DNA of 64,000 nucleotides, taken from Phoronis australis. Its lineage: Eukaryota > Animalia > Phoronida. The position numbers and the translations under genes were made by a program. This document shows, in pieces, positions 41 through 52,143 of this stretch. The notes beneath the pieces were generated by a model. That model ran no database searches and was not told where the DNA came from. It saw nothing but the letters and a program-made list of their open reading frames with translations. The first letter of the stretch is position 1, and each line of letters begins with the position of its first letter. The stretch is from positions 433,955-497,954 of the forward strand of contig NMRA01000180.1 of NCBI GenBank assembly GCA_002633005.1, given 5' to 3'.

Positions 41-165
41 GGATCTACTTCTCACTCAGCGGATCTACTTCTCACTCGGCAGATCTACTTCTCACTCAGT
101 GGATCTACTTCTCACTCAGCGGATCTACTTCTCACTCAGCGGATCTACTTCTCACTCAGTGGATC
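41..165. repeat. 20-bp minisatellite (GGATCTACTTCTCACTCAGC); second copy 2619-2764
   Basis: About 6 vs 7 units in the two copies. Confidence 0.95.
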
Positions 166-1322: not shown

Positions 1323-3273
1323 CTGTGGTAAAGCATATTACGCAACAGCTCTTCAACAACCGAGCTGCACACAATTTTTTTTCTCGGGCCATGCCGTTTT
1401 CTACCCTGACTATGTTAACCACACTTATCAAAAGCCATCTGCAAATCAAAAAAATATCTAGTTCTCTGGTAGCAGCTGAAGCAAAGTGGATTCTCTTTTT
1501 CGCACTGTTTTAACTTTTGATCAGAAGCACACGATAGAAGAGCACAAACTAACCTTAACAGCTTTCATCCCTAATATAGGGATTCTATCACTTCCCGTCA
1601 AGAAGACTGAAAATTCAAAGGAAAAGGAAAATTAATGCAATTATGTTTTGAGTGCAGAATATCACACAGCAACTGTAACACCATGAACAGCAACAATGTT
1701 CTGTCAGATTTGTCAACCAAGTAAATAACTCGTACCGTTCCCCATTTTTACAGGAATTTCTAAGAAATAAAAAAACAGAAGACAACACATCTCTTGATGA
1801 TATGGATAAACATAGGAATTTATAGTTGTACAATATACTGATGCATAATTTACACTGTCAAGTACGCCAGCATAAAATGAAAAACAAGAATATTGTTGAC
1901 TAAAATAAGCTGCGACAATAATGTTCGTGTAGACCCAAGCAACAAATGCTCACAATCAACACAAAGTGATCCTTCCATCCCAAGAACATAGATTCCATTT
2001 AGCAAACATCTGTAAATTCAACATTGTTTCGAGCTGAGCTGCTTCTATGAGCTGCTTAATAACTTACACAGGAACTTTTTCTTCTTCTTTAGTGATAGTT
2101 CCTCAAACACATCCCAGAAAAACTTGATGGTCCTGTGCAGTGGGTGATACTCGCCTTTGTATTCCGTGTTCTGAAAACAAATTGTCTCCATAAACCAGAG
2201 GTCAGGATGACCTGGTCTGGGCCATGTTCTGTAACACTTGCCACTCGTGAGAAATCATGGATCATAGAAAAGACATTGCGAGTTAACGTCCGACTTTCTC
2301 CTGTAAGTCACTTCAGAGTTGGCNNNNNNNNNNNNNNNNNNNNNNNNNNNNNNNNNNNNNNNNNTGCTCATCTCTCAAGTTAAATAATAATGTTAATACA
2401 TATTATCAAAGTATCTAGAACTAAATATGAGACACTTGAGCTAAAATATTAAATTAATCTTCCAGACTACAAGGCAGTAGTCTCAGCAACTTGTAGTTTT
2501 GTCTGATAAGGGAGTTGTGTGGCAAGACTGCGTGGTTTGAGAGTCGGCATAATATTTTGCAAAAGCTGGTAAATAGGGTTATGCAGACCATGGTAATGGA
2601 TCCACTTTGGCACTAGACGGATCTACTTCTCACTCAGCGGATCTACTTCTCACTCAGCAGATCTACTTCTCACTCAGCAGATCTACTTCTCACTCAGCGG
2701 ATCTACTTCTCACTCAGCGGATCTACTTCTCACTCAGCGGATCTACTTCTCACTCAGCGGATCGCCAACAAGAACCAATCTTCCTCCTTCACAAACTGCA
2801 CACGAGTTCCCAATACCTGAACTATTTTTTTCACTAATAGAATTCTGTTCCCACTAGCTGTATTTCTTTTCACATGAATTGCAAACCTGATCTGATAAGC
2901 ACACTTATTTTCTTACAAACTACACCCCTTTTAATTCAGCAACAGAAGGCATTACTTGCACATAATATGCATAATGCTTTGAACAAAGTCTACCTGTAAA
3001 CTGAAACTGGGAGCACATGCGGTTCATGACAAAATAAATGTATTCATACAAACACAATTGCAATGCACGTGAAAAGAACTAAAGCATTAGAATCTAATCA
3101 ATAAGGCATCATCACGACACATACAATGCCAAAGCTTAGCGACTGACCTGTGAATTTGTTCACCAGAGGTCACTGCAATAGGTAATACTAGACCAAAGCC
3201 CAAAACCAAACTGGTACAACTGCTCCACTGCTTTAACCAGATATCGCAATCACATTACTGACGCTAGGACATC

Positions 3274-3429
3274 TTAAACTAAACCAAAGCCCTGCGACTG
3301 CTCAATGGCTTTAACTAGCTTCTCTTGTAGTCTCTGTTTATTAGAGTACTTGGGTAGGTCCAACAGGTTGAAACAGGTGTGGGCCACAGGTAAGAAATCT
3401 TCTCCGCCTCCAACAGGCTGAATTATTAC
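3274..3429 (-). CDS. HERC4: HERC terminal exon 25 ([28 protein letters not shown]...GFGLV*) with catalytic Cys
   Basis: HTCFN catalytic motif, -4 Phe, TAA stop. Confidence 0.92.
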   Translation of the reverse strand, partial: VIIQPVGGGEDFLPVAHTCFNLLDLPKYSNKQRLQEKLVKAIEQSQGFGLV

Positions 3430-6400
3430 CTGTCAAGTAAAACATTGGCGTGAAGAAACTAGCAACTTTAACACTATTCGATAGAGTAAAACAAAAAGAC
3501 ACCTTCGTGATTAGAATGTTCAATTATTTTACAGCAGAAGTCCTTATTGTCATACCTCATGGCTAGGATTTGACACGTGGACTGACAACTTATAATTAAC
3601 ACAAGTGACCAACAGAGTGGTGCTATACTTGGACACTCTCCTATGCTCATAAAGACATAATAATTCATTGTTTCATTCATGAGGCATTTATCACCTTTGT
3701 TACAGTGGCTGCAAGAGATTACAAGGAGATTTCTTTCTCCAGATTTATCTCTAATGATAGAAACAGTAATATGTCCTTTTACAACCACCATACCTCAGAC
3801 ATTCAACAGAATGGTCAGTAATACGTCCTTTTACAACCACCATACCTGACATTCAACAGAATGGTCAGTAATACGTCCTTTTACAACCACCATACCTCAG
3901 ACATTCAACAGAATGGTCAGTCTGTGGTAAAGCATATTACGCAACAGCTCTTCAACAACCGAGCTGCACACAATTTTTTTTCTCGGGCCATGCCGTTTTC
4001 TACCCTGACTATGTTAACCACACTTATCAAAAGCCATCTGCAAATCAAAAAAATATCTAGTTCTCTGGTAGCAGCTGAAGCAAAGTGGATTCTCTTTTTC
4101 GCACTGTTTTAACTTTTGATCAGAAGCACACGATAGAAGAGCACAAACTAACCTTAACAGCTTTCATCCCTAATATAGGGATTCTATCACTTCCCGTCAA
4201 GAAGACTGAAAATTCAAAGGAAAAGGAAAATTAATGCAATTATGTTTTGAGTGCAGAATATCACACAGCAACTGTAACACCATGAACAGCAACAATGTTC
4301 TGTCAGATTTGTCAACCAAGTAAATAACTCGTACCGTTCCCCATTTTTACAGGAATTTCTAAGAAATAAAAAAACAGAAGACAACACATCTCTTGATGAT
4401 ATGGATAAACATAGGAATTTATAGTTGTACAATATACTGATGCGTAATTTACACTGTCAAGTACGCCAGCAGAAAATGAAAAACAAGAATATTGTTGACT
4501 AAAATTATACAGTTAGACGAACTTACCTTAAGTGAAGGATGACTGTAATTTTATGTATCCCCAGAATTCCCCCAGAGTGCTAACATGAGATACGGACATG
4601 CGCAAAGCGGACCATTCTTTAAAGCTCTTCTGTAATCAAGAGAGTGCTAACAGGGTGGGATGTGGAGGGCATGTTAGCACTCTGGGGGAATTCTGGGGAT
4701 ACATAAAATTACAGTCATCCTTCACTTAAGGTAAGTTCGTCTAACTGTATAATTTTNCCACCATACCTCAGACATTCAACAGAATGGTCAGTAATACGTC
4801 CTTTTACAACCACCATACCTGACATTCAACAGAATGGTCAGTAATACGTCCTTTTACAACCACCATACCTCAGACATTCAACAGAATGGTCAGTCTGTGG
4901 TAAAGCATATTACGCAACAGCTCTTCAACAACCGAGCAGCACACAGTTTTTTTTCTCGGGCCATGCCGTTTTCTACCCTGGCTATGCTAACCACACTTAT
5001 CAAAAGCCATCTGCAAATCAAAAAAATATCTAGTTCTCTGGTAGCAGCTAAAGCAAACTGGATTCTCTTTTTCGCACTGTTTTAACTTTTGATCAGAAGC
5101 ACACGATAGAAGAGCACAAACTAACCTTAACAGCTTTCATCCCTAATATAGGGATTCTGTCACTTCCCGTCAAGAAGACTGAAAATTCAAAGGAAAAGGA
5201 AAATTAATGCAATTATGTTTTGAGTGCAGAATATCACACAGCAACTGTAGCACCATGAACAGCAACAATGTTCTGTCAGATTTGTCAACCAAGTAAATAA
5301 CTCGTACCGTTCCATATTTTTACAGGAATTTCTAAGAAATAAAAAAACAGAAGACAACACATCTCTTGATGATATGGATAAACATAGGAATTTATAGTTG
5401 TACAATATACTGATGCATAATTTACACTGTCAAGTACGCCAGCATAAAATGAAAAACAAGAATATTGTTGACTAAAATAAGCTGCGACAATAATGTTCGT
5501 GTAGACCCAAGCAACAAATGCTCACAATCAACACAAAGTGATCCTTCCATCCCAAGAACATAGATTCCATTTAGCAAACATCTGTAAATTCAACATTGTT
5601 TCGAGCTGAGCTGCTTCTATGAGCTGCTTAATAACTTACACAGGAACTTTTTCTTCTTCTTTAGTGATAGTTCCTCAAACACATCCCAGAAAAACTTGAT
5701 GGTCCTGTGCAGTGGGTGATACTCGCCTTTGTATTCCGTGTTCTGAAAACAAATTGTCTCCATAAACCAGAGGTCAGGATGACCTGGTCTGGGCCATGTT
5801 CTGTAACACTTGCCACTCGTGAGAAATCATGGATCATAGAAAAGACATTGCGAGTTAACGTCCTACTTTCTCCTGTAAGTCACTTCAGAGTTGGCCAGTT
5901 ATTTAGTCTAAACTTAGTAAGCTCACAAACTTACTTACAAAATGCTATTCCTTTGTTGACGTGATGTCACTTGATATCAAAAGAAACTAGTCATAAAGAA
6001 TGCAACTCTTGTCTTAATTACAATTTATGATTGTTTTTTTAATTTTTAGTAGCTGCTTATTGTCTATAATTCCATTAACTGTATCTTATGTTTTGTAGCT
6101 TCTTACACATAAGAAGACTACTTTAGTATGACACAGTTTAACCAGAATGTAAAACACTTTACTCTGTTTCTGTCTCAACCCATATATGGGCAAAAGGCGG
6201 AGCTCACTTACTCCCTTTAGCTCCTCCCAGTCGTAGTTCTCATTACCAACAACCATGGCTTGCAACTCCAATGGATGAAACAGTTCCTTCAAAAGATTTA
6301 ACAAAGTGTTACAAAATGTTACCATCAAAAGCAACACAAGGCAGCAAAACTGTGGATGGATAATATATTAATTACAACAAAGATGATATGTTATTTTCAT

Positions 6401-9400
6401 TTAGTGATGGATCCTTCTGAGTTGAGAAAATTTCAGTCTTTACTAAGTAAAGAAAGATTCATTGTATCTTAATTTTCAACAAGTCACTGTAAACAAACTA
6501 GGTAGACAAAAAGTTACACTAGAAAAAATTAAGGACATTTAAACGATTTCAGTAAAGCTGAGCTGTAGAATTTTACAAAGCAAAAGATACAAAAACACTA
6601 AACACTTTGCTACAAAGCCTGTCTGATCAAATAGGTCAAAGGTCACGACATACCAGCACCTTCCCACCACAGACATTGTGAAAGCCTTCATAGAATGCCA
6701 TGAACTGTCGAAGCACCGACTTGTTGAAGACAAAGTCAATGTAACTGTCAACATAGTCCTGCTTATTTGACTGATTGACAGCTATGTTGGTTCCATTGCG
6801 GATCAGTTCAATGTGTTCGATCTCTCCAAACCGCTCCCGTGTAATCTGTAACAAAGTGATGTTAACAAGACTGTATGATCGTAATCTGCAACAAAGTGAT
6901 GTTAACAAGGCTGTATGATCATAACCTGTAACAAACTGATGTTAACAAGGCTGTATGATCATAATCTGTAACAAAGTGATGTTAACAAGACTGTATGATC
7001 GTAATCTGTAACAAAGTGATGTTAACAAGGCTGTATGATCATAATCTGTAACAAAGTGATGTTAACAAGGCTGTATGATCGTGCTTCATGAAATGGAAAG
7101 CATAACCTCTTTGTATTTCTTCAGATTTCTGGTAGCTTCCATAGATGCAACAATCTTGCGAGTACAGCTAATGAGGTCATGGCGATATCTCACTATGTTT
7201 TTCGTTATCTTGCATTTTCCCAAGATTCTTGCACCTGAGGAACACAGCCCTGGTTTGCCACTTGAAGTTTTGAGTTTTGTGAATACAATATTAAATGGTT
7301 GCATTTTGCTATACTCTGCTTTAGGGCAAAGTCGTATTATTTTCACTTTAATGAAGGTTTTTTGAAAGGTAACCAGAGACATGCCATAACTGCTGAAGTC
7401 AAGTATCATTTACTTGATATCTATTCTGTTTTAGTTAAACAAGATGAGTTTGTTTGATACAAAAACGATACAGAAAAGAGTTTCACTAGTCTCGAGACCA
7501 ACTTACAATACTAAAGAACAAAAGTGTAACTATAAGTTCACCATCTATGGAAATGCATGTTCAACCCAGCGCCATCTACAGCAATGAATGTGCAAACCAG
7601 CAGAGTCAAAATAACAATGTCTCAGTCAGTTGTAAACAGCAGATTATTCATAATCAAGCCTCAATCAATACATTTCAATCACTAAAAGAGTGACACGTGT
7701 AGACAACAAGTCAACGCCATGTTTTACCTCAAAGTTCAAACAGAAGACTTCCTCCATGTCATCCTCCTCATAATCCAAGAGTTGCTGTAGACTACGGCCC
7801 AGAGATGGATCCAACTCCCTGAGGTCATCCAGTACAATAGGCCTGCATTGCAAGAATATGACAAAGACTAAAATGTAGATATCATAAGTTGAATCAGATT
7901 CTACTGGCTAGGTATTTCAGTTTAACCCTTCTATCAGAGGTGTTTTACCAAAAATAACCGCCTAACAAAATTTATGCAGAATTAAAAAATCTCTGCTGAA
8001 AACAAGTTTCTTTTGTCTTTAAATCTGACCTGGTTTTGATGACTACAAATAAAATTGCCTTCATACAGAAAAATCATCAAAAATTTGGCTAAAATACTAA
8101 TCACTTTTAAATTTATAAGGGCAGCTATGATTTGAAAAAATAATAAAAACAGAATTGCATACACAAACAAGGTGGACTACGCAAAAATAAATAAACACAG
8201 CACAATGCAATCCCTTCCTATTCACACTTTAATCACACAAAGCCTCACAGAACAAGTAGTAAACAATCCTCAAACAAAACAGTACACCTAAGTTGAAAGC
8301 TATGGCCACTGTTTCAAAAACCATAGTGCTTAAACACTTAAGCAGGGGTGCATTCTGCAGCACGTGTTTCTTGCAGCTTTGGCAAGGTCACACATTAACA
8401 AGAGAATTCAGCGATAATTATTTGGAAAGCTAACATTTTGCGAAGAACTTCACAACCTAATTAGCAAAGAGTAGCAAAATGGCCACCGCTATGTGACTGG
8501 TGGCGAGTCCAGAATGCTGACTTGAGAAAAAAATTTAGTTTCCATTCCACAAGTCAAAATTTCTTGCTGCAAATGTCCTGTGCGCCAGAATTACTCCCAA
8601 GAAACATCCTCAGAATACCTTTTATTAATGATTGTATCATCAGATTTGCTAAATGAAAAGAGTACCGCATTAGCAAATTTACCAATTAAAAAATCATCAC
8701 CATTTGATCACCACCACGCTGCGTTCGACAAAGTCAAGGTTTGTATGATTCACTCGACTGTTTTACTGAATTATAGAATATTTGAAAACCTTTAGAATGA
8801 CTAGCTAGATATTCCTTTAAAAAGACAATGACTTCGTAAAGCTATGTAGAAATCCCACTCCATATGTGAGGCTACGGTAAAATCTCGCCACTTAAAGACG
8901 CAAGATGGCGGACAAGTGAAATCCTATATTCTCATTTTTTCGATAAAAGTTATGTTTCACGAAAATAACTGCCGTGTTCAAATTCTGTACCATGGTCATC
9001 AACAAAACACTATTTTGAAAAAACTGGTCATTCACAACAATGCTAAGAGTAATTTTGATAATTATTTTGGTCCAAAATTGGCGAGATAATACCACACACA
9101 GTTTCACACCATGGTATAACACTAAGCAATGTAACAGCACCCATCAACCTAAGAACCAACCCAAATTTAGTTCTCATCAACACTCACAAGCATTGAGAAA
9201 ATCCTGAGTTAGCAACTGTATGACTTGTGTAAATTGCACATGAGCTACGAAATGCAGGTATTCTATTGTATTGTAGTCTATAATTGGTAAGTGGATGCCA
9301 CTGCCTCACCTGTTGAGCAATTTTTTATATAGAGCAGTTGGGAATGGAAGGTCAATGATTGTGTAATTGTAGATAGCCAATCCACAGAGTTTGCCAATCA

Positions 9401-12400
9401 ATGAGAACATTACACTGTCCTCGAAACACTGAAACAAAAAGGGAACAGCAGACAATTAACATCTACTCCAAAATTGCAAACTTTCACAATTTTAAGCAAG
9501 AAGACTGCGATTTCAAAAGGGATGATGACAGTCAAGTTCACTCTAATTTTTAGCACTACTTTCCATGAGGGCCCACAGCACACTACACTCCCTCTCTTTC
9601 AAGCCCTCAAGTTAAGACTGAGTACAAGAATTCATTAGACCATCGTACAATGTTCGCAGTCAGACAGTAAACACAGATTCCAACTTAGCGCTCACAAGTG
9701 AGAGTCAGCACAATTGTTTGATACTATCCTCCTCAAACCAGTGCAGCACATGGACAGGTCACTAATCTGTGCTGCCGCCTCTTGGTATGGCTGGCAGATG
9801 GGTGACCTCTCCATAACACTTATGTTTCCGTTTGACCTCGAGCGCACTGACTATTATGGTGTTCAGTCTTCAATTTTGTAGATGGAATGAAAGACACTAC
9901 GAAAAAATATTGATTACCAGAGCATTTGTTCGAGTTGGAAAGATTATTTTGAAGATTCCAAATGTTTCTAAAGGTGTCCATCCACACTTCGTTAGTACAA
10001 TACAGTAATGTAACTTGAATAGTTAAGCTAGGATTAAGTGTAATTTGAAGAAAATCTTCAGGCGTACAAGCTTGATTAGGATGTGCTGTTGTTTATACAT
10101 TACAATGTTCTCTATTCACTCATAAATTGTCTCTGTCACACAGAACTCCGTTCCTTGTGCACATGCTCCTCTGTTCACAACTATACAAAGTCACATCTGA
10201 CAAGGAGTACTTGATGGGATCAAATAAACTAACAAGTCACATCACACCGTCTACTTTGCAATCATGCAATGTACATTGTACAAATTTGTAAACAGTCATG
10301 AAAGCAGATATCATACTTTGTGTAACGACCCAACAGCCGAACATTATATGTCTACTTTTAATTCACATTCACTGCAAATTTCTACATCTCAGCGCAACTT
10401 ACCAGATCTGTAAACCAGAGAAGCCGTGACTCATCGTACGAGACAAACATGCCATATTTGGGATCTAAAATCTCCCTGATTAACAGCATGAAGAATTCCT
10501 GAAAACAGACAGTAGGAACAAGATGACACCTAGCAGCACCCACGTATCATGCTATGAGCATATTTCAATCAAGCCATGATATATTGACTGTAGGTACATC
10601 AACTCTTCTTGTGACAGCTGTGCAAGTAGCCAATGAGAACTAGTTCGCTACAGTCAGCTTAAAGGAAGCCTCCACCGCAAAAGTGCATCATCTTCATACT
10701 AACTGCATCCACTACTTAATATAATACGGTAATTTTCCACTCATTTCCCACAACAACACTTGCCGAAATTGCCAGTTTTACTTTGGTACAAACAGTGGAA
10801 ACTTTGCCAAATGTCTTATGACCAGACAAACTATTCCTAGTAATAGACAAAAATTTTATTAGTAATATTTTTGTGGAGAAATTTGACAAAATACAATTTC
10901 ACTTGTCGGCCATATTGCGTACTAAATAAAGAATTGTTGCAATAAAGCTGCTTTACCCTCCAATACAAGCCTGAACAGTAAATAATCACTGACGGGGCAA
11001 TAATCAATATAAATATTCTCCATTATAGGAGATAACTTAGGAAAATGTGATGGTCATGCTGCCATGTTCTATAGAAGACAATCGCGCGAGCGGTTTGGTC
11101 TACTGCACATCATAATTATAGGGATGACCGCTGTTAAGTACAACAAAAGTTGAATATTTTTATTTTGTTTCTAGAGTTCCATTGAAGTCATTGCTCAAAA
11201 TGGGGGATAAATGGATTTATTACATGACCCTGGCACTTATTTCTCGTATACACCTGAAAACAACAGCCTTCCTACGGATCCTCCCAAAAAGTATAATTTT
11301 TCCTTGTTGACAATTGAAAAATCTTGTATAGCACTAATTGTATCACGATGAATTGATTGGTATCGCTACAAACATCAACTTCAAGAGCAAATGAATTTGG
11401 TTCATTCAGCTGATAGGAAGGGCTAAATGAATGCAGTTGGTGGAACTAAGAATCAACAAACAATATACCAACAAGTATGACTGGAATCAAAACTTGATTT
11501 ACTAAACAACAGACAACGCTTCAAACAAAACGACTCGGGACCATCAGTATCAACACTGAACTTGCACAATTTTCGGTAACAGTCACTTACAGGGGTTCTG
11601 CACATTGAGAACCAGTTCTCTCTCTGGAATAACGAGCACCAAACTACTTCTCAAAATTTGGGAACCCTGTAAGAAACCTCGAACACGAAGCAACTAGTAG
11701 TGAGATGCTGCTGAAGACAAAAATCCTGAATGCTTTAAGCATTGAACACAAAGCAACACTAGAGGGCGTCATTTATCAATGCCGACCTTACGAACGCCAC
11801 CTTCGTCGACTGCGTCCTCACCAATGAATACTACCTGAAAGGGAAAACAACACTATGATCTCTAATTCTGTAACTGGGCATGAGTTGGACGCAAGTAGAG
11901 ACACTTTCTGATGAGTGGAGTGGGTAGGGCATTATTTCCAGCAGATTTAGAGTATTTAGGAAAGTACCGAGTAGGAGCATGCTTGAAAGCACCAGTGTAT
12001 CTCAAAAAAGCTGCATTGGCGGTGCCACAATCTAAGCCAGCAGCCACTTGAATTGAGCGTCCCGCAAAATAGATCATTGCAAAGCTAGGAAATTCAGTAA
12101 CACTGTTTCTCAGGAACAAAACCTTACCTCAGAAGAAAAATGCTAACCTGATGATTTCAACTACTACACCCTAAAAGTGCACTGTTTCGCAATAAAGTTT
12201 CAAGCGGAGGGTGTCAGAGGTCAGAAAGTGCTCTACCTGCGACCAAATCACTGCCCACACTCAGACATACCTTTTTAACACCACCTGCGTCAATGGCCTC
12301 CTCGCCAGTGAACATTACCTGAAAATATAGACAGAGCATGCAGGTCCCATCACCCGACAATAAGTAAAACTACTGCAACACGTCCCAATAACCAGCAGAC

Positions 12401-15400
12401 AAAATTTCAGGGAATTCCCTGTAGTTGGAATAACCTGTCTTGGTGTATGATTGCCTTCGGCACGTAATGTATACACCGCAGGGCCAAAGAAGCCACTCAA
12501 GCTTCTAACTAGCTTTAGTGTGGGTATAAGGGTGCTTACTGTTACTATGAATAGCACATACTAGTCACTATGAACATTCATGTAATTTTATACATCAAAC
12601 AAAATGACTGGTCAGCCAGCACAAAAACTGTCTTCAGCATTATATATCGAACTCTGCCCCTATCCCCAAATAATGAAATACAGAAAAAGTAGGTCTGAAA
12701 CATTTGCTGAAAATTTTATACTCTTAAATTGGCTTTTTGTATCAATTATTTTAAAATGCCTTTAACTACTCAGTAACTGCATACAAATTAATAACAATAA
12801 TACAGGTACTGCAACAATTTTGTCTCGACTCTTGTTATGACAAGTGGAGACTCAGCTCAGACGTTAATCGTAAAAGCAGTGCAAGTACAAAGCCTGACAA
12901 ACCAATATTCAAAAGACTCTCAGCAAAATGTCTTCTTAGTTGTCCAAGGCGGGAACACTTCCTTCCTACGATACTCAGCAATAACAAGAAAGAAAAACAC
13001 AACAGAGAAAGAAAAATACAACAGAGAAAGAAAAATACAACAGAGAAAGAAAAATACAACAGAGAAAGAAAAATACAACAGAGAAAGAAAAATACAACAG
13101 AGAAAGAAAAATACAACAGAGAAAGAAAAATACAACNAGAATTGTTGCAATAAAGCTGCTTTACCCTCCAATACAAGCCTGAACAGTAAATAATCACTGA
13201 CGGGGCAATAATCAATATAAATATTCTCCATTATAGGAGATAACTTAGGAAAATGTGATGGTCATGCTGCCATGTTCTATAGAAGACAATTGCGTGAGCG
13301 GTTTGGTCTACTGCACATCATAATTATAGGGATGACCGCTGTTAAGTACAACAAAAGTTGAATATTTTTATTTTGTTTCTAGAGTTCCATTAAAGTCATT
13401 GCTCAAAATGGGGGATAAATGGATTTATTACATGACCCCGGCACTTATTTCTCGTATACACCTGAAAACAACAGCCTTCCCACGGATCCCCCAAAAAGTA
13501 TAATTTTTCCTTGTTGACAATTGAAAAATCTTGTATAGCACTAATTGTATCGCGATGAATTGATTGGTATCGCTACAGACATCAACTTCAAGAGCAAATG
13601 AATTTGGTTCATTCAGCTGATAGGAAGGGCTAAATGAATGCAGTTTGTGGAACTAAGAATCAACAAACAATATACCAACAAGTATGACTGGAATCAAAAC
13701 TTGATCAACTAAACAGCAGACAACGCTTCAAACAAAACGACTCGGGACCATCAGTATCAACACTGAACTTGCACAGTTTTTGGTAACAGTCACTTACAGG
13801 GGTTCTGCACATTGAGAACCAGTTCTCTCTCTGGAATGACGAGCACCAAACTACTTCTCAAAATTTGGGAACCCTGTAAGGAACCTCGAACACGAAGCAA
13901 CTAGTACTGAGATGCTGCTGAAGACAAAAAATCCTGAATGCTTTAAGCATTGAACACAAAGCAACACTAGAGGGCGTCATTTATCAGTGCCGACCTTACG
14001 AACGCCACCTTCGTCGACTGCGTCCTCACCAATGAATACTACCTGAAAGGGAAAACAACACTATGATCTCTAATTCTGTAACTGGGCATGAGTTGGACGC
14101 AAGTAGAGACACTTTCTGATGAGCAGAGTGGGTAGGACATCATTTCCAGCAGATTTAGAGTATTTAGGAAAGTACCGAGTAGGAGCATGCTTGAAAGCAC
14201 CAAAGATTATAGTAAATAGTGTATCTCAAAAAAGCTGCATTGGCGGTGCCACAATCTAAGCCAGCAGCCACTTGAATTGAGGTCCCGCAAAATAGATCAT
14301 TGCAAAGCTAGGAAATTCAGTAACACTGTTTCGCAGGAACAAAACCTTACCTCAGAAGAAAATTGCTAACCTGATGATTTCAACTACTACACCCTAAAAG
14401 TGCACTGTTTCGCAATAAAGTTTCAAGCGGAGGGGGTCAGAGGTTAAAAAGTGCTCTACCTGCGACCAAATCACTGCCCACACTCAGACATACCTTTTTA
14501 ACACCACCGGCGTCAATGGCCTCCTCGCCAGCGAACATTACCTGAAAATATAGACAGAGCATGCAGGTCCCATCACCCGACAATAAGTAAAACTACTGCA
14601 ACACACCCCAATAACCAGCAGACAAAATTTCAGGGAATTCCCTGTAGTTGGAATAACCTGCCTTGGTGTATGATTGCCTTCGGCGCGTAATGTATACACC
14701 GCAGGGCCAAAGAAGCCACTCAAGCTTCTAACTAGCTTTACTGTGGGTATAAGGGTGCTTACTGTTACTATGAATAGCCCATACTAGTCACTATGAACAC
14801 TCATGTAATTTTATACATCAAACAAAAATGACTGGTCAGCCAGCACAAAAACTGTCTTCAGCATTATATATCAAACTCTGCCCCTATCCCCAAATAATGA
14901 AATACAGAAAAAGCAGGTCCGAAATATTTGCTGAAAATTTTATACTCCTAAAACGGCTTTTTGTATCAATTTTTTTTAATGCCTTTAACTACTCAGTAAC
15001 TGCATACAAATTAATAGCAATAATACAGGTACTGCAGCAATTTTGTCTCGACTCTTGTTATGACAAGTGGAGACTCAGCTCAGACGTTAATCGTAAAAGC
15101 AGTGCAAGTACAAAGCCTGACAATCCAATATTCAAAAGACCCTCAGCAAAATGTCTTCTTAGTTGTCCAAGGCGGGAACACTTCTTTCCTACAATACTCA
15201 GCAATAACAAGAAAGAAAAATACAACAGAGAAAGAAAAATACAACGGAGAAAAAAAATACAACGGAGAAAGAAAAATACAACGGAGAAAGAAAAATACAA
15301 CCGAGAAAGAAAAATACATCCGAGAAAGAAAAATACAACAGAGAAAGAAAAATACAACGGAGAAAGAAAAATACAACCGAGAAAGAAAAATACATCCGAG

Positions 15401-18400
15401 AAAGAAAAATACAACCAAGAAAGAAAAATACAACCAAGAAAGAAAAATACAACCGAGAAAGAACAACACGGGTTAAGACCACTCACCTTGAGCGGTTTCT
15501 TGAGATCAGCTTGGCCCTGTTTTGTGAGCTGTTCTATTGTATCATGGACAATCTGCGTGCGGCTGATGTAGAGGATAAGGCAGGGACAGACAGGGTCGAT
15601 CAGGGACACAGGGAACAAGAAGTTGGTGAGGTTACGGCGCGACACCTCATCCACAGCTGCCTGTGAAAAGAAGGTACACAACAGGGCTGAAGCTGAGAGT
15701 TGCCAGAACATCCCCATAACCCAGGTTCCCAAGTACAAAAGGAAATGGTCTGTAGAATATGAGCTCCATAGTTATCAAGGGTATATTTCATGAAAAGTGA
15801 CTTCAAACTGAAGTCAGAAATTTGGTCTTGCACTCCACACAACTACTCTTGAAAAATAATTAAATCTCAATTGAGCAAAAATGCAGCAAAGTCTGCAACA
15901 ATATACACACTGCTAGTTACTGACAGAGATAATTATAAATTATTTCTAGACTATGACATGCTCATAATTACCATGATAAACCTTTAATCCAGACTGTAAA
16001 GTGGGAACATAACATCAAATTTTTGTCTTAAGACTTAAGTCATTTTTTATGAAACACATCGATGAGTTGATAACCACAAAAAGAAATCATGCCTAAATTT
16101 TTCATCCACTACTAAAACTAGACCTAGATAAACAGTTATTCCCAGGCTAAAACAAAATCTTCAAACTAAGTGTGAGCCTGTGTTTAGACCGGATGTACTT
16201 TACCTGCATCTGCATGGCTGCATCTGTGTGCAAAAGAATCGTTTTGGCTTGAGCATCGAAGATGAACGGGTAGTTACAAAAGGAATGTCTACCATTCTGC
16301 AAGAACCAGGATAACATAAATAACGAATCAAAACGAGATAGCATCAATATCTTTTTGAAATGCAGACACAATTAGTAAATATCTACAAAAAGATAGTATG
16401 GTGAAATCATTTACCAACATGTTTAGTACTCAAAATAAACTGGACAATGTAAAAATATGATGTTGTTTTGCAGCGCATAATTGCTACTAAATATATCCAT
16501 TTGTTTAGAGCTCATTCCAATTCTGGCTAAACTCAGGTCTTGCTCCACTCACTTTATCGAAATTCCCACAAATCTCCTTGCAAGGTCCTTCACAAATAAA
16601 CAATTCCTGGCCAAGTGCAATAACGCCCTATTAAACTTTGCCTTACATTTGACACAAAAATACAATTTCATTGGTACAAAAGTTTGGCTGAACTGCCAAA
16701 TAACCCTGACAACAAGTTTGTTCAAGCGTCGTGGAATCTGGCAGAATTCTGTCAAGGGCTGTCTACTTCATTTTGAAAACTATTGTAAGCTCCTCAGCAT
16801 AAGCGGGAAGATCATCAGGAAGCTGGTGAGACACTTTATGAATGTTTACTGGGAAAATGGTACTCAGATGGCAGATGATACAAAAGATCTGGCATCTCAC
16901 GAGACATCATGTGATCACGGGATGAAACAAATGGTCACAACTATTATACAGAAGAACTGGCATCTCAAGGGATGCCATGTGAACACGGGATTAAACGAAT
17001 GCAGTCATACCTATGATACAGAAGAACACGGGATGAAAACGAGACGCCATATGAACACCGGATAAAACAAATGGTCATTACTACCTGTCCGCTAGTTGGC
17101 TGTTGCTGTCTCCAACTAACATAGTCCATTCGAATGTCCACCTTCTCTGATAAGGCGCTGATGTAAAATGAGTCATATGGCACAATCTGAGAGCTTTTCT
17201 CATTTATATTATTTAGTTTTTTCAGCACTTCCAAGCAAATCTGGATATATCGCTGCCCGGCTAGTACGTCGTAGTCTGAGCCTTGTGCTGTACTGTTGAA
17301 TACATTAAGAATACAGTTCTTGTAAATCTGAAAATGGAAATAATCAACAACAGATGGTGAACATATTGCTGTAATACTCCACTTCTACGACACAGTCACT
17401 TGATTTCACACATACAAAATTATTTGGCAATATAGTTTACTGCTAATCCCCTATGTTGCAAGAGGTTATTTCACTGTTATTGAGAGCCTGAGAGGTTATT
17501 TCACTGTTATTAAGAGCCTGAGAGGTTATTTCACTTTTAATGAGAGCCTGAGAGGTTATTTCACTGTTATTGAGAGTCTGAGAGGTTATTTCACTGTTAT
17601 TGAGAGCCTGAGAGGTTATTTCACTGTTATTGAGAGCCTGAGAGGTTATTTCACTGTTATTGAGAGCCTGAGAGGTTATTTCACTGTTATTGAGAGCCTG
17701 AAGTAGTTCGTTCACGACCAGTTTTCAGAAAGAAAACAAATTGCATTCCAAAAACTTAACACAACATGAAAAATGAACATCAACAATTGATAAATGTGTT
17801 AAATCATAATTCATTAATAGTCATAACATTGATAATGTTAAGTGAAATAAATAATTATGTCTTAAAAGTCCACTACACCAATAAGTTAGCATGGTTTACC
17901 GTCCACTGGACTTGAGAGAAGGCAAACTGTCCTCTATTTCAGTGTCATTGCTATGTATAAATTCCGTAAACTGCCAGTTCAAACCACATCTGCGAAATGT
18001 TTTTGTTTTATAACTTGACCTAAAGCCCTCCCTCCTCAGGGATACGTGGTCCCAACTCAAGTACAATCAATACTTATACAACAAACTGTTAACTTTCTAC
18101 TCAACAATGTTCATTTTATTCCAGCTTATTCCAACTGTACCTGAATCAGCATTTTGAAGTCCCTGGCTTGCAGTTTCGCCCACCATTTATCTAAAGAGAG
18201 AAATAGAAACTGAATATTACTCCATTCGACAGGATGAGAAGTTGAGCCTATATCCCAAATTAAGGACAAACAGTCACCTAAACATAAAACTGATGAGTAA
18301 ATTTTCAAAATATTACGTTAATGAAACTTGACTTAAATGTAACAAAATCGTAGACATAGACGTGTATTGATTATACACTAAGTAAACGGAAAGTAATAAA

Positions 18401-21400
18401 ACTGAACAAAATCTAATAACTAATTGCCACTTTAAGATATGGTTATGTGTAGAGGATATCCACTTGTGCTTGTAAGGGAAACTTAGCCATATGCACTAGT
18501 AATCAATACAATGAGTCAAAATTTTCTTTGACAAACATTTCGGATATAGGCGTATAAGCCTAAATATACACACATACAGTAACAGCAAAACGTAAAGCAT
18601 TTTAGACTGTATAACAATTACAAAGTAGACTATTCCAGCTGTGAAAACTAAACGACTGCCATACAACGATCAAAGATCAACAGTCAATGTATGATGAAAA
18701 TGACCCAGGCTATCCGCATGTTTCTATCCAATGTAATGATTTATTTATAATTTTTGTTAAACTTGAGACCTGGATGGAAAACAACCAAGAAGGCAATCAC
18801 AAACAAAGAGAAAACGGGTGTGAATATGAATACAGCGGTGATTGGTAGACATTCTAATCCCATTACTTCTTAAATTTTAACTTTTACGTTTACATACCAA
18901 GCACACTGGATGCGCCAGTGTCCAGCTTCAGTATGGCGCCGCCGAATCTGCAAATGACATCCTTGTATGAGGATGCATCAGCAAAGAAATGCATGAAAGG
19001 TAGTGCGAGATAGACGCGCAGTGCTTCGACATCCGGCGGTGAAGTGGGAAGACTGGACAACAGGTGGCTCTCCAGGCAACTACAGATCTGGAAAGGTGGT
19101 AGGCCGTAAGTCAATCAAAGGGCAAGTCTACTTTATTTATCAAATGGCACAAACAAGTAACTAATATCAACAGATCTATTTCCAATCACATGCTTTCAGT
19201 GTAATGATTGACAACATATTAGTTCCATGTATGACTTTAGTATTCAAAATGATTTTGTAAGTTTTTAATAAGTTCACAAATCATGTTCTATTGAGTAAGA
19301 TACAAACTACAACCAGTTTTATATCAGTCTTATCAAAATTTTGGTGCTTCTGACAAAAAATGCTGAACTGGCAAATTTAAAATACTCTGGAAAGTTTAGT
19401 TTTACTAAGACCTAGTTGATAGACATCCTCAGCACAGCCAATGGGATGCGAAAGAGAAGTTGATGGGGTCAGACACGTGCAACCAAAATGTGTGCACCCA
19501 TCAAACAGTTCTTCATCAACTTCGCTAATATTGGAAGATGGAATACAGTTAAGGCTGTCATGAAAAACTTGAAAACAAAGGCAACAACAAATACTTTCAT
19601 TAACTCTAGAGGTGCGAAAACGAGGCCAGAGAACTGCTTGATGGATCTTACAGCATTGTGGGCAAATACCGTGAAACTTGCCGATTTTGTAATGACAATT
19701 TCCTGGAATATGCCACTACGCCGGCTGCTTTATGTGGGTTAAACGGGAAATGATTTGTTTTTTTGACATTTCATGACAATAACCGTGATGTTCCATTATC
19801 AAGTATGGCATTAAATGGAATCTACTGTACGGTACTATTTTTGAACACAATATTTACTATCAGATTGTTCAAGGACATGGTTTTGTGTTTTAACACTATT
19901 ACGTAGTGACAATTAGCACATTACAAGCTTTACATAGTGAAGCAGTTTCATTCACAATCAAGCGCAATACGCGACTACCTCATTTTCCCATTTGTTAACA
20001 ACTAACATACAGGACATTTACATAAAATACAGTTTCACTTACAAGTGCAGCTACAAGGCGGTTAGGACATTCACTTAACTTCTTGAAACCAGTCTTGACT
20101 GCGTTAAGGTCTACGCCGTGATTACGACTACTGCAGTTGAAATGTCCGTCGTTGCTGAAAGCAATACGTTTATTCATCACTCAAGAAATTTCAGATTGAA
20201 CGACTTAAGGTTCACGCGAGTATAAAAACGTAGAATAAATGAAAAAGGTGTACAAATGGTGGTAGCCCAGAAGGAAAATATGGTACATAGCAAAAGCAGA
20301 GACGAAATTCCATTTCCCTGCCATAATTCTGTTAAAAACAATAATTGATTTAACTAATAAGGTGTCAAAACTCACGTAACAGAATGACTTAGCCCCTTTA
20401 CAAACTTTCCTGACAATTCGCCTTCATTCTCCTTCATGAGGGAAGGCTACTCCCGATGATGAATTTGGCTGCACCCCAGCCATCACAACTGGGAATTCTG
20501 CGTCACTTTGTCCAATACTTTTGACATGTACTGTAGCTACATTTCATTTCCAACATATAAGAGTGCCAATCTGACATATCAATAACGTAGACAATCTATA
20601 TACATAGGACACTCATCTTACTATCGTGTTAATATTATTCATCAAAACTATATCAACACTCATCATTTTAACATCAATCAATTTCACATAGTGCACACTG
20701 AATGGATAATTCACAGTTAAGTCATGCCCACCACAGTTCACATTGTGAAGTTCAATAATTGCACAGCCAACATGTCGGAAGTCCTTTGCAAGCAAACTAC
20801 AGTAACAGTTTACCTGTATGCAATTTCATGTTTTCTGAAAGTGTTGCCATATAGTGCAGCATTATCAGAATGGTTGCTATGGAAGCAAACACACTCTTGC
20901 ACCCAGCAATATATAGACGACACCAAGCTTTTTACACCAACCCAATGACACGGCAACCTTATTCATAATCATGCAGGTGTCTGATCAGTTTCAAACACAC
21001 AGTAGTTGGTTCAATTGCACGAGATGAGGTGCTCTAGTAAGCTAATTCCTAGCACAAAATTAGAGGAAATAGAAGCCACTGGCCGTCTGGTGGCAAGTGT
21101 CTTGATTGACATTTCCACAAGTCACACTGCCATCCACATTCATAGTTAAACGTTTATTTGACTCACACTAAAGAAAATACATATAATTACGAAATATTAT
21201 GAATGCGAAGACTAGATCATGATTTTATGAGCGATGGGCACTTTTCCTTTTTCATGATCTGCATATCGTTGGACCTACTCCGACTCATAACACCATCTTA
21301 ATGCCTTCATTTACAACCAATAATTGCAAGACAAAGAAGACGGACTATAGTGATTTCTACATTTTCCCTTGACCTGATTGACTGGAATCATTAGCTTGAT

Positions 21401-24400
21401 TGACATGTCAGAACTGCCCAATGCAATTTCAGTTTAAAGTTTGACAAGCATGGTGGGGTGGGCTGTACCGTTCTTCACTTGCCTGTATTAAATCAAAAGT
21501 GTGCAAGCAGCCTACTGCTACCTTTTGAAAGCTAGTCTAAGGTCAACCATACAATGCATTTTCTACAACCACAAAAGAAGAAAGTTTCAATTCAGTTTGA
21601 AACTTTTAGTAAGCAGAACACTGTTATTCAATTTTTTAAATAACATTACCTGCTTGGTACAAGACATACCACAAATCTTGACAATGTGATCCTTAACATA
21701 GACCCTTTGAGATCCTACTCACCTTAGCAAGAAAGACCCATTGAGACATGCTGCAGAGGAGAATATTGCTTCAATATTTCTGAAAAACATGGAACATTTA
21801 AAAAGAAAACTAGTTAATGTAGCAGAGAGCATCTCACCACTGCAATAGCACCATAAAACGTCACTTTAAATGAAGAAAAACAAGAGATGTAGTGATGTAC
21901 TTCTAACCACACGGCATCAAATATTAACAAGTATTTTTTCTATATTGCCAGGGCTGCAGTCATAAATCATTGCTGAAAGAATTATGCTTTTTGTCACTGG
22001 TTTTCACATGACTATCACGAGATAAAAATATGATTCAAAAAATAGAAAGGTACCTTATTAAAGATCTTTCATTTTGTATTTTGAACCAGTAGTTGTACAG
22101 TGAATACCACATGAGGTGCTAGTAATTGTACAGTCATGAACACCATATGAGGTGCCAGTAGTTGTACGGTCCTGAATACCGTATCAGGTGTCAGTAGTTA
22201 TACAGTCCTGAATACCATATGAGATACAGGTAGATGTACAGTCCTGAATACCACATGAGGTGCCGGTAATTGTACAGTCCTGAATACCATATGAGGTACC
22301 AGGAATAGTACAGTCCTGAATACCACGAGGTGCCAGTAATTGTACAGTCCTGAATACCATATGAGGTGCCAGTAATTGTACAGTCCTGAATACCATATGA
22401 GGTAACAGGAATAGTACAGTCCTGAATACCACGAGGTGCCAGTAATTGTACAGTCCTGAACACCATATGAGGTGCCAGTAGTTGTACGGTCCTGAATACC
22501 GTATCAGGTGTCAGTAGTTGTACAGTCCTGAATACCACATGAGGTGCCAGTAGTTGTACAGTCCTGAATACCATATGAGGTGCCAGTAGTTGTACAGTCC
22601 TGAATACCATATGAGGTGCCAGTAGTTGTACAGTCCTGAACACCATATGAGGAACCATTTCCACATGATACATACTCTTTCATGGAGTTTGACAATCGCT
22701 CGGCAGGGCTGACTCTAGCGTAAGTGTCTATCATTGTTTCGTCAATAGTGAGTATTCGCTTGTCTTTGGCAAACACACGGAAATCATCTACGTCCGATTC
22801 CTGCAATATTTTTTAACTACTCAGCAGAAGTAAAATCCACAAGTTAGGAGAGACAATAAAACGATCCTTCTACGTGTCTGTATATAACTGTGTTGTTAAC
22901 TGCGTTGTTAGTTATTAACATGCATGACTAGTAAATCCTTCATAGAATCCATAGAATTAACTCCTTACCAGTTTTAAACAAAATACTCTTCACATTTGGT
23001 AGTAAAAAGAACAGTCAGGAATATCCCGTTTGTCTGCTCATACAAACAAACAAACAAAAAATAACTGCATTCTTCATTCCAATCCAAAAGCAAAACCCAA
23101 GCCTCACTACACAACTCTTTTGTCGCAAAAACAACAAAAAATTAAGACAAAAAGTCACACGTGATAAAAGAAATACTAAACAATATGTTCACCGCCAACC
23201 TACCCTACATTTTAACATTTCTTATAATCTTATCACTGTAACTTATCATTATCATGTCACAGTTTTATTTCATGGTAACAAACGCAAGAAGTTTCATTCA
23301 ATACTTAAAGCGGTAAACATGGCACCTCATGGGGAGTGGACGTAAAAGGAGCAAAAAAGGTAAAGAAAGGCTTACTTCATCTCCAGACATCACGGTGAAA
23401 CAGGTGTCTCCCCCAGCATAGATGCACCTGGCAACAAGGGGGTTGATGCCGTCTACCTCCATCACGCTTACGGCTGAGGTCAAGGTCATCCACCAGCCAT
23501 CCACTGGCTGTGGCAAGTCACTGCTGGGCACAGATTTCTGACCAAGCTGACCACTTCCACCCAGACCAAACGAGTACAGTCGCCCACTACTACGTACAAA
23601 GGCCAAGGTGTGCTGGCTGTAAGGAAGCAAAGCTGATGGTTATGACAATCTCAGGTAGTTAAAGCTTGTGCTTGTTAGAATGTTCAGTTTTAGAGACCTT
23701 ACCAAAGACACCTTGAGGCAATTAAAGGGACATTTCTTGCATTCTCACAACCTAAAATCTAAGTTATGAAAACCTTTCCATAAAGTACAAAATACACTTC
23801 ATCGCCAAACCGATCACTCTATGGGACAAGTGAAAAAGGTAAAAATCAATTTTGACCGCATTCTTCAAGCCTGACAGCACATGGGGCCATTCAGCTGACG
23901 TTGAAAACAAATTGGAATAATGGTAAGAACTATTTGTGAAACTAGTTCGCTAGACATTTTTAGTCATGGTTTCCATGATTTATTTGTCTGACACACCCTA
24001 AGAAGACATGGCTTTGTAATGCAATGTAAACAATCACTGGTTTGAAAGTACCGAAATGGTAACAGTGCCAGGAATAAATAATGATTTTAAAGAACTGGGC
24101 TAGCAAATAAATTGATAAATCTACTCATCACTTTCTTGAATACATGCCACTTAGCAATAAATCATGGGATAAATGTAAACGTACTTTCCACAGGCTATCT
24201 GTGACACTGTACTGCCCATCAGTTCAAACACTTTCCTGGGTAGGAGTTCATTATTCTTTGACCCGTGTCCAAGTTGACCGCACGTGCCTGCACCGAATGT
24301 AAAAACACCACCATCCTGCAATGCAATGCCAATCTTGAACTTTCACGGAAAACTCCAGACTGTGGGCTACCTATCAACTCAATGGCACACTTTCCTGACT

Positions 24401-27400
24401 AGCACATGATTACAGTAACAATAACAATAATAATAATAACAATAACTAAAACAATAATAATAATAACAATAATGTAAACAATGGTAACAACAATCACCAC
24501 ATGATTATAATAACATTCATAAGTTAGTGCTTATGCTACACATTTTCAACTACTAAGCACTTTACACACAAAATGAGCTCTGCAAAGTTCAGTATCAGTT
24601 ACGACTCAATTAAAACATGCAAAAATTTCACAGGTGCTATTTTCAGACACTACAGTAAAAATACGTTCAATAGGCTCATCCCTTTCAATTTATAAACAGA
24701 ACGTGAAATCTGCCCCAGTTTTGTTCAAAGGGCAATAATTCCATGATGTTTTTGGAACACCATAAACTAGAACAAGTATAATGAGGTCAAAGTAGCAGCA
24801 TATATGTAATAAAAAATAAATACCTCATCGCAATCAAAACTGGGCAAACAATGATGTAAACTAAATATTGCCAAGAACATACAAGAACCAACTTATAAAC
24901 ACCTGAGTAAGTGCCACTTTAAGAGAAGAGAGAATGCATCGTACCTTTGTCAAGACCGCAGTATGGTCCGCTCCGCAGCTAACAAAATTGACGTTTTGAC
25001 TACGCAATGACTTGCACAAGTTGGGAAACATGCGATCTACAAAGAGCATCGAGCAGTGCTTAGATACTGCATGGTAGCATTAGGTATAACAAGATGTGAA
25101 ACAACTCTATTGACCTCCATTCATCATTTACCATCATCCTAACTGCTCCTAACTTGATAAACAGTCAAGAAGAAAAAGCAACTCCTTCAACCAGAAACAC
25201 TATTGTCTCTAACCCTCATATGTTCCAATTGAGTATCATTCTAGACAAGTGAGCATTATAAATATGTGTCAAATTAAAAAATATCCAACGTAATTGGGGA
25301 TAATATAATTTAAGGTAATTGTCAGCCCTTTCAACTTTCATCAAAACAACTTTTTCAGTCTCCATTCTCAACCCATAAAACTACATCTGGACTCTACACC
25401 TAGCATAACGTCAACTCGCTAAATGTGACCTGGCAAAAATCCTAGGTCGCCGAATGGGAGATGAGTTCGCCAAAACAACAGTTCCTGCCAAAGAATTTCG
25501 ACTTCTTTCGGTTAACCGAACTTCCTATTGTAGTTTGAATGCATGCTCAGATGTGTGGCACAAGAACAGATTTCACGAAATAAATAAAGAACATTTTGTA
25601 AAGCAAAAAAATTGTATTTCGGAAAAAATCATTTTTAAAATTTGAAAATCACCACAAATTTCAAAGCCAATTACAGAACAATTCTTATTTATCTGACTTC
25701 AGATGTAGCTGCATCTGGCTAAAACCTGGAGACTTCATGGCAACTTTGAATTTATACCAGGTTGCCAAACAAAATTTGAGGTTGCACTGGTGAGCTGCTA
25801 GTCAAAAATTCAAGACACGCATATATTATAAGTAAAAAATGTGTGACTTCATTTATATTCAAACGTCAAACACTTTTTGTGAAAATTATTTCTTTCTTTG
25901 AATATCAATTTTTAAAGCACCTAAACTGCGAAGGCTTCTTGCTAGAACTATAATGATGTTGTCAATAAATAGAAAACTGAGTCTAATTTTTTCTTTATCC
26001 TCAAACAATAAATAACAGCACTTAAAGTCAATTTTTAAAACGTCTTCACTTTGAACAGTGTGGCTCAGTAGTTAGAGCTCCGGACTACCGCTTGGGAAAC
26101 TTGGGTTCAAATCTTGGCTTCACTGGATTACATTTGAGCATTGCACAAAGATGTCCCCTATTCCTCTGAGCTCGGCGTAATACTAGTGAATGTGTGCAAG
26201 GGACTGAATGAGAACCTGGATATAATGCAAAAGCGATTTCTAGGGCAGTACTCGTATTTTTTTTTAACTTTGAACAGTCGAATTGTCCATTGTACGAAGA
26301 AAACGTAAAAATCTGAAAAACTGTTCCCTCTGCCATAAAATAAGTTTGCAAGATTTCATGCAAACTGACCCACCCACTAATGAGAAATCAGCGTTAAAAA
26401 AACTAAATAAGTGTTGAAAACAATGAAAACGGTCAATAAAGACTTGCCACATAATTGAAATGGAAGTCATCTCAAGCAAACCACGTATTTGGTGTGCAAA
26501 TGTTATAGACAGAAATGGAAAATAAAGATATAATTTTATACAAAATGTAAATTTTGCATTTTTAAAAGAAATACACAAAGGTTGACTAGAAATCTTACCT
26601 TTTTGATCATTAAGACCCAACTGGCCAAAGCTGAAAAATAAGACCACCTTAATTAAGTATATTGGGAAACCATAGAATGTTTGTGTGAAGTAACATCAAT
26701 ATTTAATCAACATCTGACATGTGAGAGCAATGTTACACGCCGATACTAAGGAAAATCACAATGGGGCTATTCGGAAAATCTACAACAACTAGAGGGCGTG
26801 CGTGTACTAGTGGTGATAGATTAACAGCCTCGATTTCGCGAGCCCTTTAAATACATGGTGAAATGGCTTGCAGCCGTGCCAACTGAATCTGAGATTGCGT
26901 AAAAAGGGTGCTTCTATGAGAGGAAGTAAGCACGACCTCATACAAAGGTAAGGTTTGTGATTATTTTTACGATTATTCCATGATTATTCTACCGATGCCT
27001 GTTAACCGAGGCACTCGCCGATGTCGACTTCGCGGCAGTCAGTCGCCAGCCAGAGTCTGGTTAATCTTTGTATGTTGTGATATGTGATACGATACTTGAC
27101 GTAGCAATCGGGATCTTTCGTACATCAAAGCATTATTATTGTTTGGAATGATTTCTAAAAGTTTATCAGTGATAGTTACATCAATCAATGCTGAATGTTT
27201 ATGCTGTCAACTCGATACAGGTTAATGAGTTAAGATTACAATCCAATCCCAATGGTAAAGGGTACGTGAGTGATAAATATCCATTGCATTAGACTATTTG
27301 TTTACTCCCTATCATATGTCTTCTGGCAATCTGTTACACGTTGAAATGGAAATCTATCACGTCAGTTTTCACGTAACCTTTGGTTTTTAGGTTTGAAGGC

Positions 27401-52115: not shown

Positions 52116-52143
52116 AACGCTTTGGTATTGCCTCCTTCTACAG

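Follow-up and report, generated by a model that had tools for sequence, protein, structure and literature searches.

The HERC4-type small HERC gene of the phoronid Phoronis australis contains two tandem exons, 17a and 17b, which very probably constitute a functional pair of mutually exclusive exons; each encodes its own version of the ligation loop in the N-lobe of the HECT domain, with either Ala (17a) or Glu (17b) directly after the putative catalytic Asp. The window (the whole stretch of DNA that was analysed) has a length of 64,000 nucleotides, and the coordinates of the features discussed are presented in Table 1.

Table 1. Features of the HERC4-type gene and its exon pair in the window
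Feature	Position	Strand	Description
Small HERC (HERC4-type) coding span	3274..38653	-	25 coding exons, 1050 aa; ATG at 38653, stop at 3274
Exon 16	15487..15660	-	Constitutive, upstream of the pair, start of the HECT N-lobe region; matched by loose read ends
UGCAUG	14560..14565	-	Candidate regulator site ~20 nt ahead of the 17a acceptor; single copy, chance possible
Exon 17a	14494..14541	-	Ala-type, upstream of 17b; 48 nt; catalytic Asp flanked as Ile-Asp-Ala; donor AAG|GTATGT
Intron 17a–17b	14043..14493	-	451 nt; closest AG upstream of the 17b acceptor at a distance of 20 nt; GCAUG at 14190
Exon 17b	13995..14042	-	Glu-type, downstream of 17a; 48 nt; catalytic Asp flanked as Val-Asp-Glu; donor AAG|GTCGGC (weak)
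Second copy of the 2.2-kb unit	10930..13136		Matches 13138–15358; abuts at a single N, 13137
Duplicate 17a	12271..12318	-	2 nt differ from 14494–14541; joints to exon 18
Duplicate 17b	11787..11834	-	Identical to 13995–14042; joints to exon 18
Exon 18	10403..10498	-	Constitutive, downstream of the pair

The host gene and the two exons

With either 17a or 17b, the 25-exon model is free of stops, encodes 1050 amino acids and contains only GT-AG introns. The RCC1 repeats are located in the N-terminal part (PF00415 is above the cut-off in all three N-terminal exons scanned) and the HECT domain in the C-terminal part (PF00632 is matched by two of the three HECT-region exons scanned, the miss being the 32-aa exon 18); the motif bearing the HECT Cys is found in the last exon (3429–3274). 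The top named BLASTP matches of the protein are annotated as HERC4, and the best match among the proteins compared is HERC4 of the brachiopod Lingula (55% identity). Based on these sequence features, the gene is a HERC4-type small HERC and a predicted ubiquitin ligase. It resembles the small HERC subfamily as described in the accessible sections of Marin (2010, PMC2837046), namely one RCC1-like domain, a C-terminal HECT domain and a length of about 1050 aa; the same sections derive the small HERCs from one ancestral gene in invertebrates.

The earlier note had reported two exons of equal length and phase with canonical splice sites, and this was borne out at the coordinates of Table 1: both have 48 nt and phase 0/0, and each is preceded by AG and followed by GT. 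They are identical at 33/48 nucleotides and 10/16 residues. Seven of the 16 codons are identical, three are synonymous and six non-synonymous, so that the ‘many synonymous positions’ described in the note were an overstatement. The introns flanking 17a and 17b share no similarity beyond 7–8-nt words.

Use of the exons in RNA

The RNA data consist of three raw-read runs (X2, X3 and X4), which belong to one study and are of low depth; ~18–19% of each run was read, joints are reported from three reads up and mates are counted twice. On the copy at 14–15 kb, the summed reads are 20 for 16→17a, nine for 16→17b, 16 for 17a→18 and seven for 17b→18. By run (X2/X3/X4), the loose read ends matching exon 16 number 4/7/9 for 17a and 5/4/none listed for 17b, and those matching exon 18 number 4/8/4 for 17a and 3/4/none listed for 17b; their agreement with exons 16 and 18 is 0.99–1. 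On the copy at 10–13 kb, direct CT..AC joints are found for 17a→18 (4/8/2, total 14), 17b→18 (3/4/0, total 7) and 18→19 (7/15/11). Junctions of 17a are supported in 3/3 raw-read runs and those of 17b in 2/3; the X4 reads over 17b are unspliced, because they continue into both adjoining introns.

Mutually exclusive use had been proposed from the sequence, and the RNA junctions agree with it: both splice paths are present, with all four joints to exons 16 and 18 seen, and no 17a→17b joint is listed on either copy (0/25 informative reads in the three low-depth runs). The 95% upper bound for double inclusion is 11%, or about 21% with mates halved.

The 17a:17b ratio of the exon 16 joins is 4:5 in X2, 7:4 in X3 and 9:under 3 in X4. 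A sample-specific ratio (X2 4:5 vs X4 9:0) was considered and not retained, the Fisher p value being 0.03 at face value and 0.16–0.17 when unlisted reads or mate pairs are taken into account. In the contig set X1, coverage is confined to exon 19 and repeats.

The second copy of the 2.2-kb unit

The window carries four exon copies (17a and 17b twice each), a doubling which the earlier note had not mentioned, and the two copies of the unit are 96.4% identical over 2225 columns (self-BLAST). The alternative residues (A/T) which had been given for one position of 17a are the difference between these copies; the Ala base is found in 24/24 reads there. A real duplication, i.e. a four-exon cluster 17a, 17b, 17a', 17b', would be in line with the presence of both copies in the assembly and their intact splice sites. 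We consider it very improbable: the copies meet at one N, the last exons of the gene are doubled likewise at N gaps (2324–2364 and 4757), and X4 has a single allele at 12/12 copy-distinguishing sites with at least three reads, six from each copy, as a mosaic of one locus would. A single allele is found at 6/7 such sites in X2 and 1/3 in X3, all counts being taken from the best-supported read differences only. Within 17a itself, X4 carries the copy-1 base at 14509 (9/9) and the copy-2 base at 14532 (10/10), a combination present in neither assembled copy. The mosaic haplotype of X4 agrees with a single polymorphic locus of which both alleles were placed one behind the other in the assembly; the four-exon cluster was therefore set aside on the allele counts of X4, X2 and X3, and the second pair (11787–12318) most likely represents the other allele, duplicated by the assembly. 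Decay of one of the exons was also rejected, as both are spliced and 17b is identical between the presumed alleles though the unit differs by 3.6%.

Distribution across lineages and origin of the pair

Homologues were drawn from 30 protein clusters (up to 15 listed members each) and from searches with 78 matches and the best 120 of 3750; exon 25 served as homology query, and the 64-aa exon 21 query gave no matches. The isoforms of the homologues are database models, compared as protein sequences and not as genomic exon orders.

At the protein level and among the matches listed, the loop could be read in 40 named lophotrochozoan species, 14 of which have both versions. These 14 comprise molluscs (Liolophura sinensis, three Haliotis, two Patella, Ylistrum, Pecten, Argopecten, Mizuhopecten, Ruditapes and Mercenaria), the nemertean Tubulanus polymorphus and the brachiopod Lingula anatina. 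When the 17a- and 17b-type proteins were aligned within species, all substitutions fell inside the 16 residues in 11/11 species (Mizuhopecten, Ruditapes and Mercenaria were left out of this alignment). The Logan-derived full-length proteins of the scallop cluster also include both types, two and two. The other 26 of the 40 species have one type only among the matches listed, and many of them are represented by a single record each: 25 are Glu-type and Gigantopelta has Gly. All listed records of Biomphalaria glabrata (7), the Magallana cluster (13) and the Mytilus cluster (10) are Glu-type. It is possible that 17a has been lost or is rare in some lineages. No annelids are found among the named matches listed.

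Across the 15 pairs (including Phoronis australis), columns 6, 10, 12, 13 and 16 are invariant, while columns 2, 4, 14 and 15 change freely in either exon type. Column 11 is Ala in 15/15 17a-types and Glu in 15/15 17b-types; the earlier note had singled out this difference (DAGG vs DEGG), and it proves to be the sole fully diagnostic column. Column 9 comes next, with Ile in 14/15 17a-types and Val (9), Gln (3) or Ile (3) in 17b-types. Selection on both exons, which the note had also suggested, is supported by the retention of pairs in 14 species of three phyla (mollusc, nemertean and brachiopod).

Mean identity over eight lineages is 11.4/16 among 17a-types and 12.9/16 among 17b-types, against 10.3/16 within species. 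Even without column 11, which serves for labelling, the true A/B labelling ranks first of 128 (eight lineages). The complete Ala/Glu split points to one ancient duplication; on these comparisons a single old event fits better than repeated ones, and we infer that it was early lophotrochozoan.

Outside Lophotrochozoa, Ala is found in 161 of the 166 records (matches listed, isoforms counted separately): 2/2 cnidarian, 16/18 echinoderm and hemichordate, 26/26 amphioxus, 97/98 vertebrate and 20/21 arthropod records. Among the matches listed, Glu is seen outside Lophotrochozoa in one nematode record only. The Ala of the outgroups suggests that 17a keeps the ancestral state and that 17b is derived; judged by the aligned proteins, 17a likely preserves the ancestral Ala of cnidarian, deuterostome and arthropod HERC4, and 17b likely gained an E6AP-like Glu. 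The records give no support to a split in which vertebrate HERC3 would resemble one of the exons and HERC4 the other, since the one vertebrate record without Ala has Val and none has Glu, in a set that is nearly all HERC4 with one HERC3-like HECT. The latter, the bird record P0257, which we take to be HERC3, also has Ala. In unrelated single-copy HECTs, position 11 is A, E, D, M, Q or V, and is thus tolerant across families.

The loop in the HECT domain

The earlier note had placed the exons in the N-lobe ligation loop, and three lines of evidence agree on this location: the spacing to the Rsp5 loop, the match to E6AP and a structural model. E6AP is the nearest solved structure both by sequence (E 1.5e-99) and by fold, and has Val-Asp-Glu at positions 9–11, as in 17b; a PDB search with each 25-aa exon window gave no matches. 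In the chiton Glu-form as modelled by AlphaFold2 (53 sequences, mean pLDDT 89.3), the exon comprises the end of strand 729–733, the loop and the start of helix 744–756, with pLDDT 71–76 in the exon segment, below its neighbours. By spacing, Rsp5 E491, L494, D495, Y496 and E502 correspond to exon positions 6, 9, 10 and 11 and to the first residue of exon 18, respectively; the last is a Glu that aligns with the Glu opening the same helix in E6AP. Glu6 and Asp10 are present in both exons, so any isoform effect would come from neighbouring residues. The two exons differ at positions 9 and 11, which match L494 and Y496, and also at positions 4–5 in the strand-loop hinge, which are more variable in 17a.

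According to the excerpts of Kamadurai (2013, PMC3738095), E491 and D495 of Rsp5 are essential for ligation and E502 is the Angelman site of E6AP; the loop lies beside the thioester, in an electrostatic network with R74 of the donor ubiquitin, and the mutant L494A/Y496A is defective, more so in di-ubiquitin synthesis, which perhaps marks the binding of a substrate ubiquitin. In UBR5, the corresponding ‘ligation-organizing loop’ contains E2287, whose charge pair with R54 guides the acceptor ubiquitin (Hehl 2023, PMC10830417, in extract), and the available part of a preprint on HUWE1 (Franklin 2023, PMC10274628) reports more K6 chains for the loop mutant E4054A/Q4056A. A 2026 review concurs on the role of the loop in the sections consulted (PMC13196369). 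The K48 specificity of E6AP is assigned to the C-tail and ubiquitin itself in the accessible text of Ries (2019, PMC6463701), and E6AP G545R/E is a loss of function (PMC8635412). No report of a mutant of the position-11 Glu of E6AP (E544A) was found in the literature searched, including the accessible portions of PMC6463701, PMC13018541 and PMC8635412.

Control of exon choice

Passive routes of exclusion for mutually exclusive exons, including a distance of less than 50 nt between donor and branch point, are described in the available text of Hatje (2017, PMC5740500). Double inclusion of 17a and 17b is in frame and free of stops, and frameshift with nonsense-mediated decay was rejected as a route on that ground. 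Steric clash was rejected because the intron between the exons has 451 nt and its branch point is predicted to be near the 17b acceptor, with AGs 20–35 nt upstream of it. U2/U12 incompatibility was likewise rejected, as all introns are GT-AG and the donors are unlike the U12 consensus. In a scan for docking and selector pairs in this one genome, the best 40-nt RNA duplexes have –27 to –30 kcal/mol, no better than eight shuffles. As the passive routes either fit poorly or, in the case of RNA pairing, gained no support from the scan, splicing factors likely set the choice; the weak 17b donor and the UGCAUG, presumably a motif of the RBFOX type, suggest control by a protein factor.

Possible consequences of the exchange

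The best explanation of these observations, which we hold with moderate confidence, is an exclusive pair whose Ala/Glu swap likely alters acceptor docking and chain output. One HERC4-type gene would splice either 17a or 17b between exons 16 and 18, and the two resulting proteins would differ only in a 16-residue strand-loop-helix segment beside the active site. Positions 9 and 11 would face the acceptor ubiquitin or lysine, as judged from other HECTs, and exchanging Ala for Glu by the catalytic Asp would likely alter the docking of the acceptor ubiquitin and thereby chain type or rate. The Glu form, with its added negative charge, is predicted to build chains efficiently (K48-type, like E6AP), and the Ala form to be less selective or slower. 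Splicing factors that act on the weak donor of 17b would likely make the choice between them. For the part of this reading which concerns the enzyme, namely that an isoform effect falls on acceptor docking and chain output, we see even chances. A bolder version may be entertained as a tentative and somewhat doubtful proposal: a splice switch in the HERC4 loop might have chosen the chain type in lophotrochozoans (E6AP-like K48 vs other output, toggled by the one Ala/Glu exchange at the catalytic Asp), presumably since the early Cambrian or before.

Several observations run counter to a role in chain output. The residues proven essential are common to both exons; the Rsp5 result concerns a double mutant in another subfamily, with Tyr at position 11; the K48 specificity of E6AP is placed elsewhere, as described above (PMC6463701, accessible text); and with one type only in 26/40 species among the matches listed, one version may suffice for many lineages. 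The loops could instead adjust how active the ligase is overall or how it regulates itself (through the stability of the L-shaped ligation conformation, autoubiquitination or its own turnover), and not the acceptor ubiquitin or the chain type, which we regard as rather unlikely. Such tuning would suit the position of the loop next to the thioester and its network with donor ubiquitin R74 (excerpts of PMC3738095), the differences at the more variable hinge positions 4–5 and the mapping of E6AP linkage specificity to the C-tail (PMC6463701, in the same text); however, the positions that differ most consistently are those on either side of the catalytic Asp, where the Rsp5 mutations with a defect in di-ubiquitin synthesis lie (PMC3738095, as excerpted), and the HUWE1 loop mutant altered linkage and not total activity (PMC10274628, available part).

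It is improbable that the isoforms are near-equivalent, with the pair persisting through partitioning of expression between cells or stages and the Ala/Glu difference as a frozen accident. The identity of the essential residues, the conservative nature of most substitutions, the many one-type species among the matches listed and a sample ratio that may differ (4:5, 7:4, 9:under 3) would be compatible with equivalence; yet column 11 separates 15/15 pairs while columns 2, 4, 14 and 15 drift, and equivalent exons are not expected to fix one differing column over three phyla. The readings in which the exons are used singly are in turn to be set against independent cassettes, often co-included in tissues outside the samples. 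Although double inclusion would be in frame, the RNA comes from three low-depth runs and models skipping both exons are annotated in Haliotis cracherodii and Mercenaria, we give independent cassettes hardly any credence: besides the 0/25 junction reads, no doubled loop is found among the homologous proteins with a readable loop, and by the structural model doubling would repeat a sheet strand and the start of a helix.

Relation to known systems

Homologous mutually exclusive exons form an established class, and 17a and 17b resemble the human tandem pairs (Hatje 2017, PMC5740500; Martinez Gomez 2021/2022, PMC8373072 and PMC9741552) in being adjacent, equal in length and phase and used singly, and also in being ancient and swapping one structural element. 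Unlike those in the human catalogues, the present pair occurs in lophotrochozoans and falls within an E3 ligation loop. The portions searched (text of PMC9741552 and PMC5740500, supplements of PMC8373072 and PMC5740500) contain no entries for HERC3, HERC4 or UBE3A, nor an alternative loop exon of E6AP; NEDD4L is the sole HECT-family gene found in these portions, and its candidate exon pair matches PDB entry 2NSQ and does not resemble the 17a/17b loop in sequence.

The HERC records of vertebrates, amphioxus, echinoderms, hemichordates, cnidarians and ticks have one loop version per gene, almost always with Ala, in contrast to the two of Phoronis, which arise by splicing. E6AP/UBE3A shares Val-Asp-Glu-Gly-Gly with 17b, but belongs to another subfamily and has no RCC1 domain. 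The same N-lobe loop is that of Rsp5/NEDD4 (491–496), UBR5 (D2283–E2287) and HUWE1 (E4054/Q4056), with residues mapped by spacing for Rsp5 only; these loops are known from engineered mutants of single-version enzymes, whereas the Phoronis gene keeps two natural versions.

The choice of chain type by HECT ligases is an open question, for which the loop has been known only from engineered mutants. Evolution supplies matched enzyme pairs in 15 species, which differ consistently at one residue by the catalytic Asp, and thereby names the exact substitution to be studied in these enzymes, in human HERC3 and HERC4 (Ala) and in E6AP (Glu). Should the isoforms differ, the catalytic output of an E3 would be set directly by splicing, and if the splice-switch reading is true, HECT linkage specificity would here be under natural control through one residue; should the isoforms not differ, what is left is a very old and apparently undescribed exon pair of known type. 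No published report of the pair was found (subscription journals and bioRxiv supplements were outside the search), and the accessible sections of PMC2837046 and PMC11353290 hold no discussion of it. Both isoforms are already present in RefSeq models, where they stand without comment.

Variation of the loop exons across taxa

The ligation loop of small HERC proteins, encoded in P. australis by exon 17a (Ala-type) or 17b (Glu-type), varies among the homologues. In the small HERC of the nematode Steinernema (P0228) the catalytic Asp is followed by Glu; either the Glu exon predates the Lophotrochozoa or Glu had two origins. In the venerid clams Ruditapes (P0381) and Mercenaria (P0385), a single inserted residue brings the 17a-type exon to 17 residues and position 8 is Thr, but Asp-Ala is retained. 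Tick models differ around the equivalent exon (Dermacentor albipictus: P0435, P0437–P0439, P0443; Ixodes: P0204, P0206): five records have an N-terminal extension of 8 residues and two are 3 residues shorter, possibly through alternative splice sites or model errors. Both exons are absent from two annotated mollusc isoforms, Haliotis cracherodii X3 (P0369) and Mercenaria X3 (P0384), which removes the entire loop and keeps the frame; these could be ligation-dead forms or noise.

Unspliced reads and duplicated segments

In RNA run X4, reads are unspliced across exon 17b and the introns on either side (13850–14185, depth 3–7), in contrast to 17a, which is spliced in this run. The unspliced reads represent either nascent RNA or intron retention.

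Self-BLAST demonstrated that exons 23–25 and the 3' flank are present twice, at N gaps, within 1–5895. This is the same allele-duplication pattern as in the 17a/17b unit, and gene models built on the P. australis assembly will contain false extra exons. The plus-strand open frames within 47471–55682 are probably parts of a divergently transcribed neighbouring gene.

Coordinates of duplicated segments, intronic arrays and open frames
Feature	Position	Strand	Details
Duplicate segment	1-1906 vs 2579-4505		97.5% match
Duplicate segment	1186-2323 vs 4758-5895		99% match
Intronic tandem array	15210-15470		units ~19 bp
Intronic tandem array	22085-22655		longer units
Intronic tandem array	17461-17701		longer units
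Intronic tandem array	6841-7082		longer units
Intronic tandem array	34458-34773		longer units
Open frame	47471-48499	+	342 aa, Ser/Glu-rich
Open frame	52883-53332	+	charged
Open frame	55425-55682	+	charged
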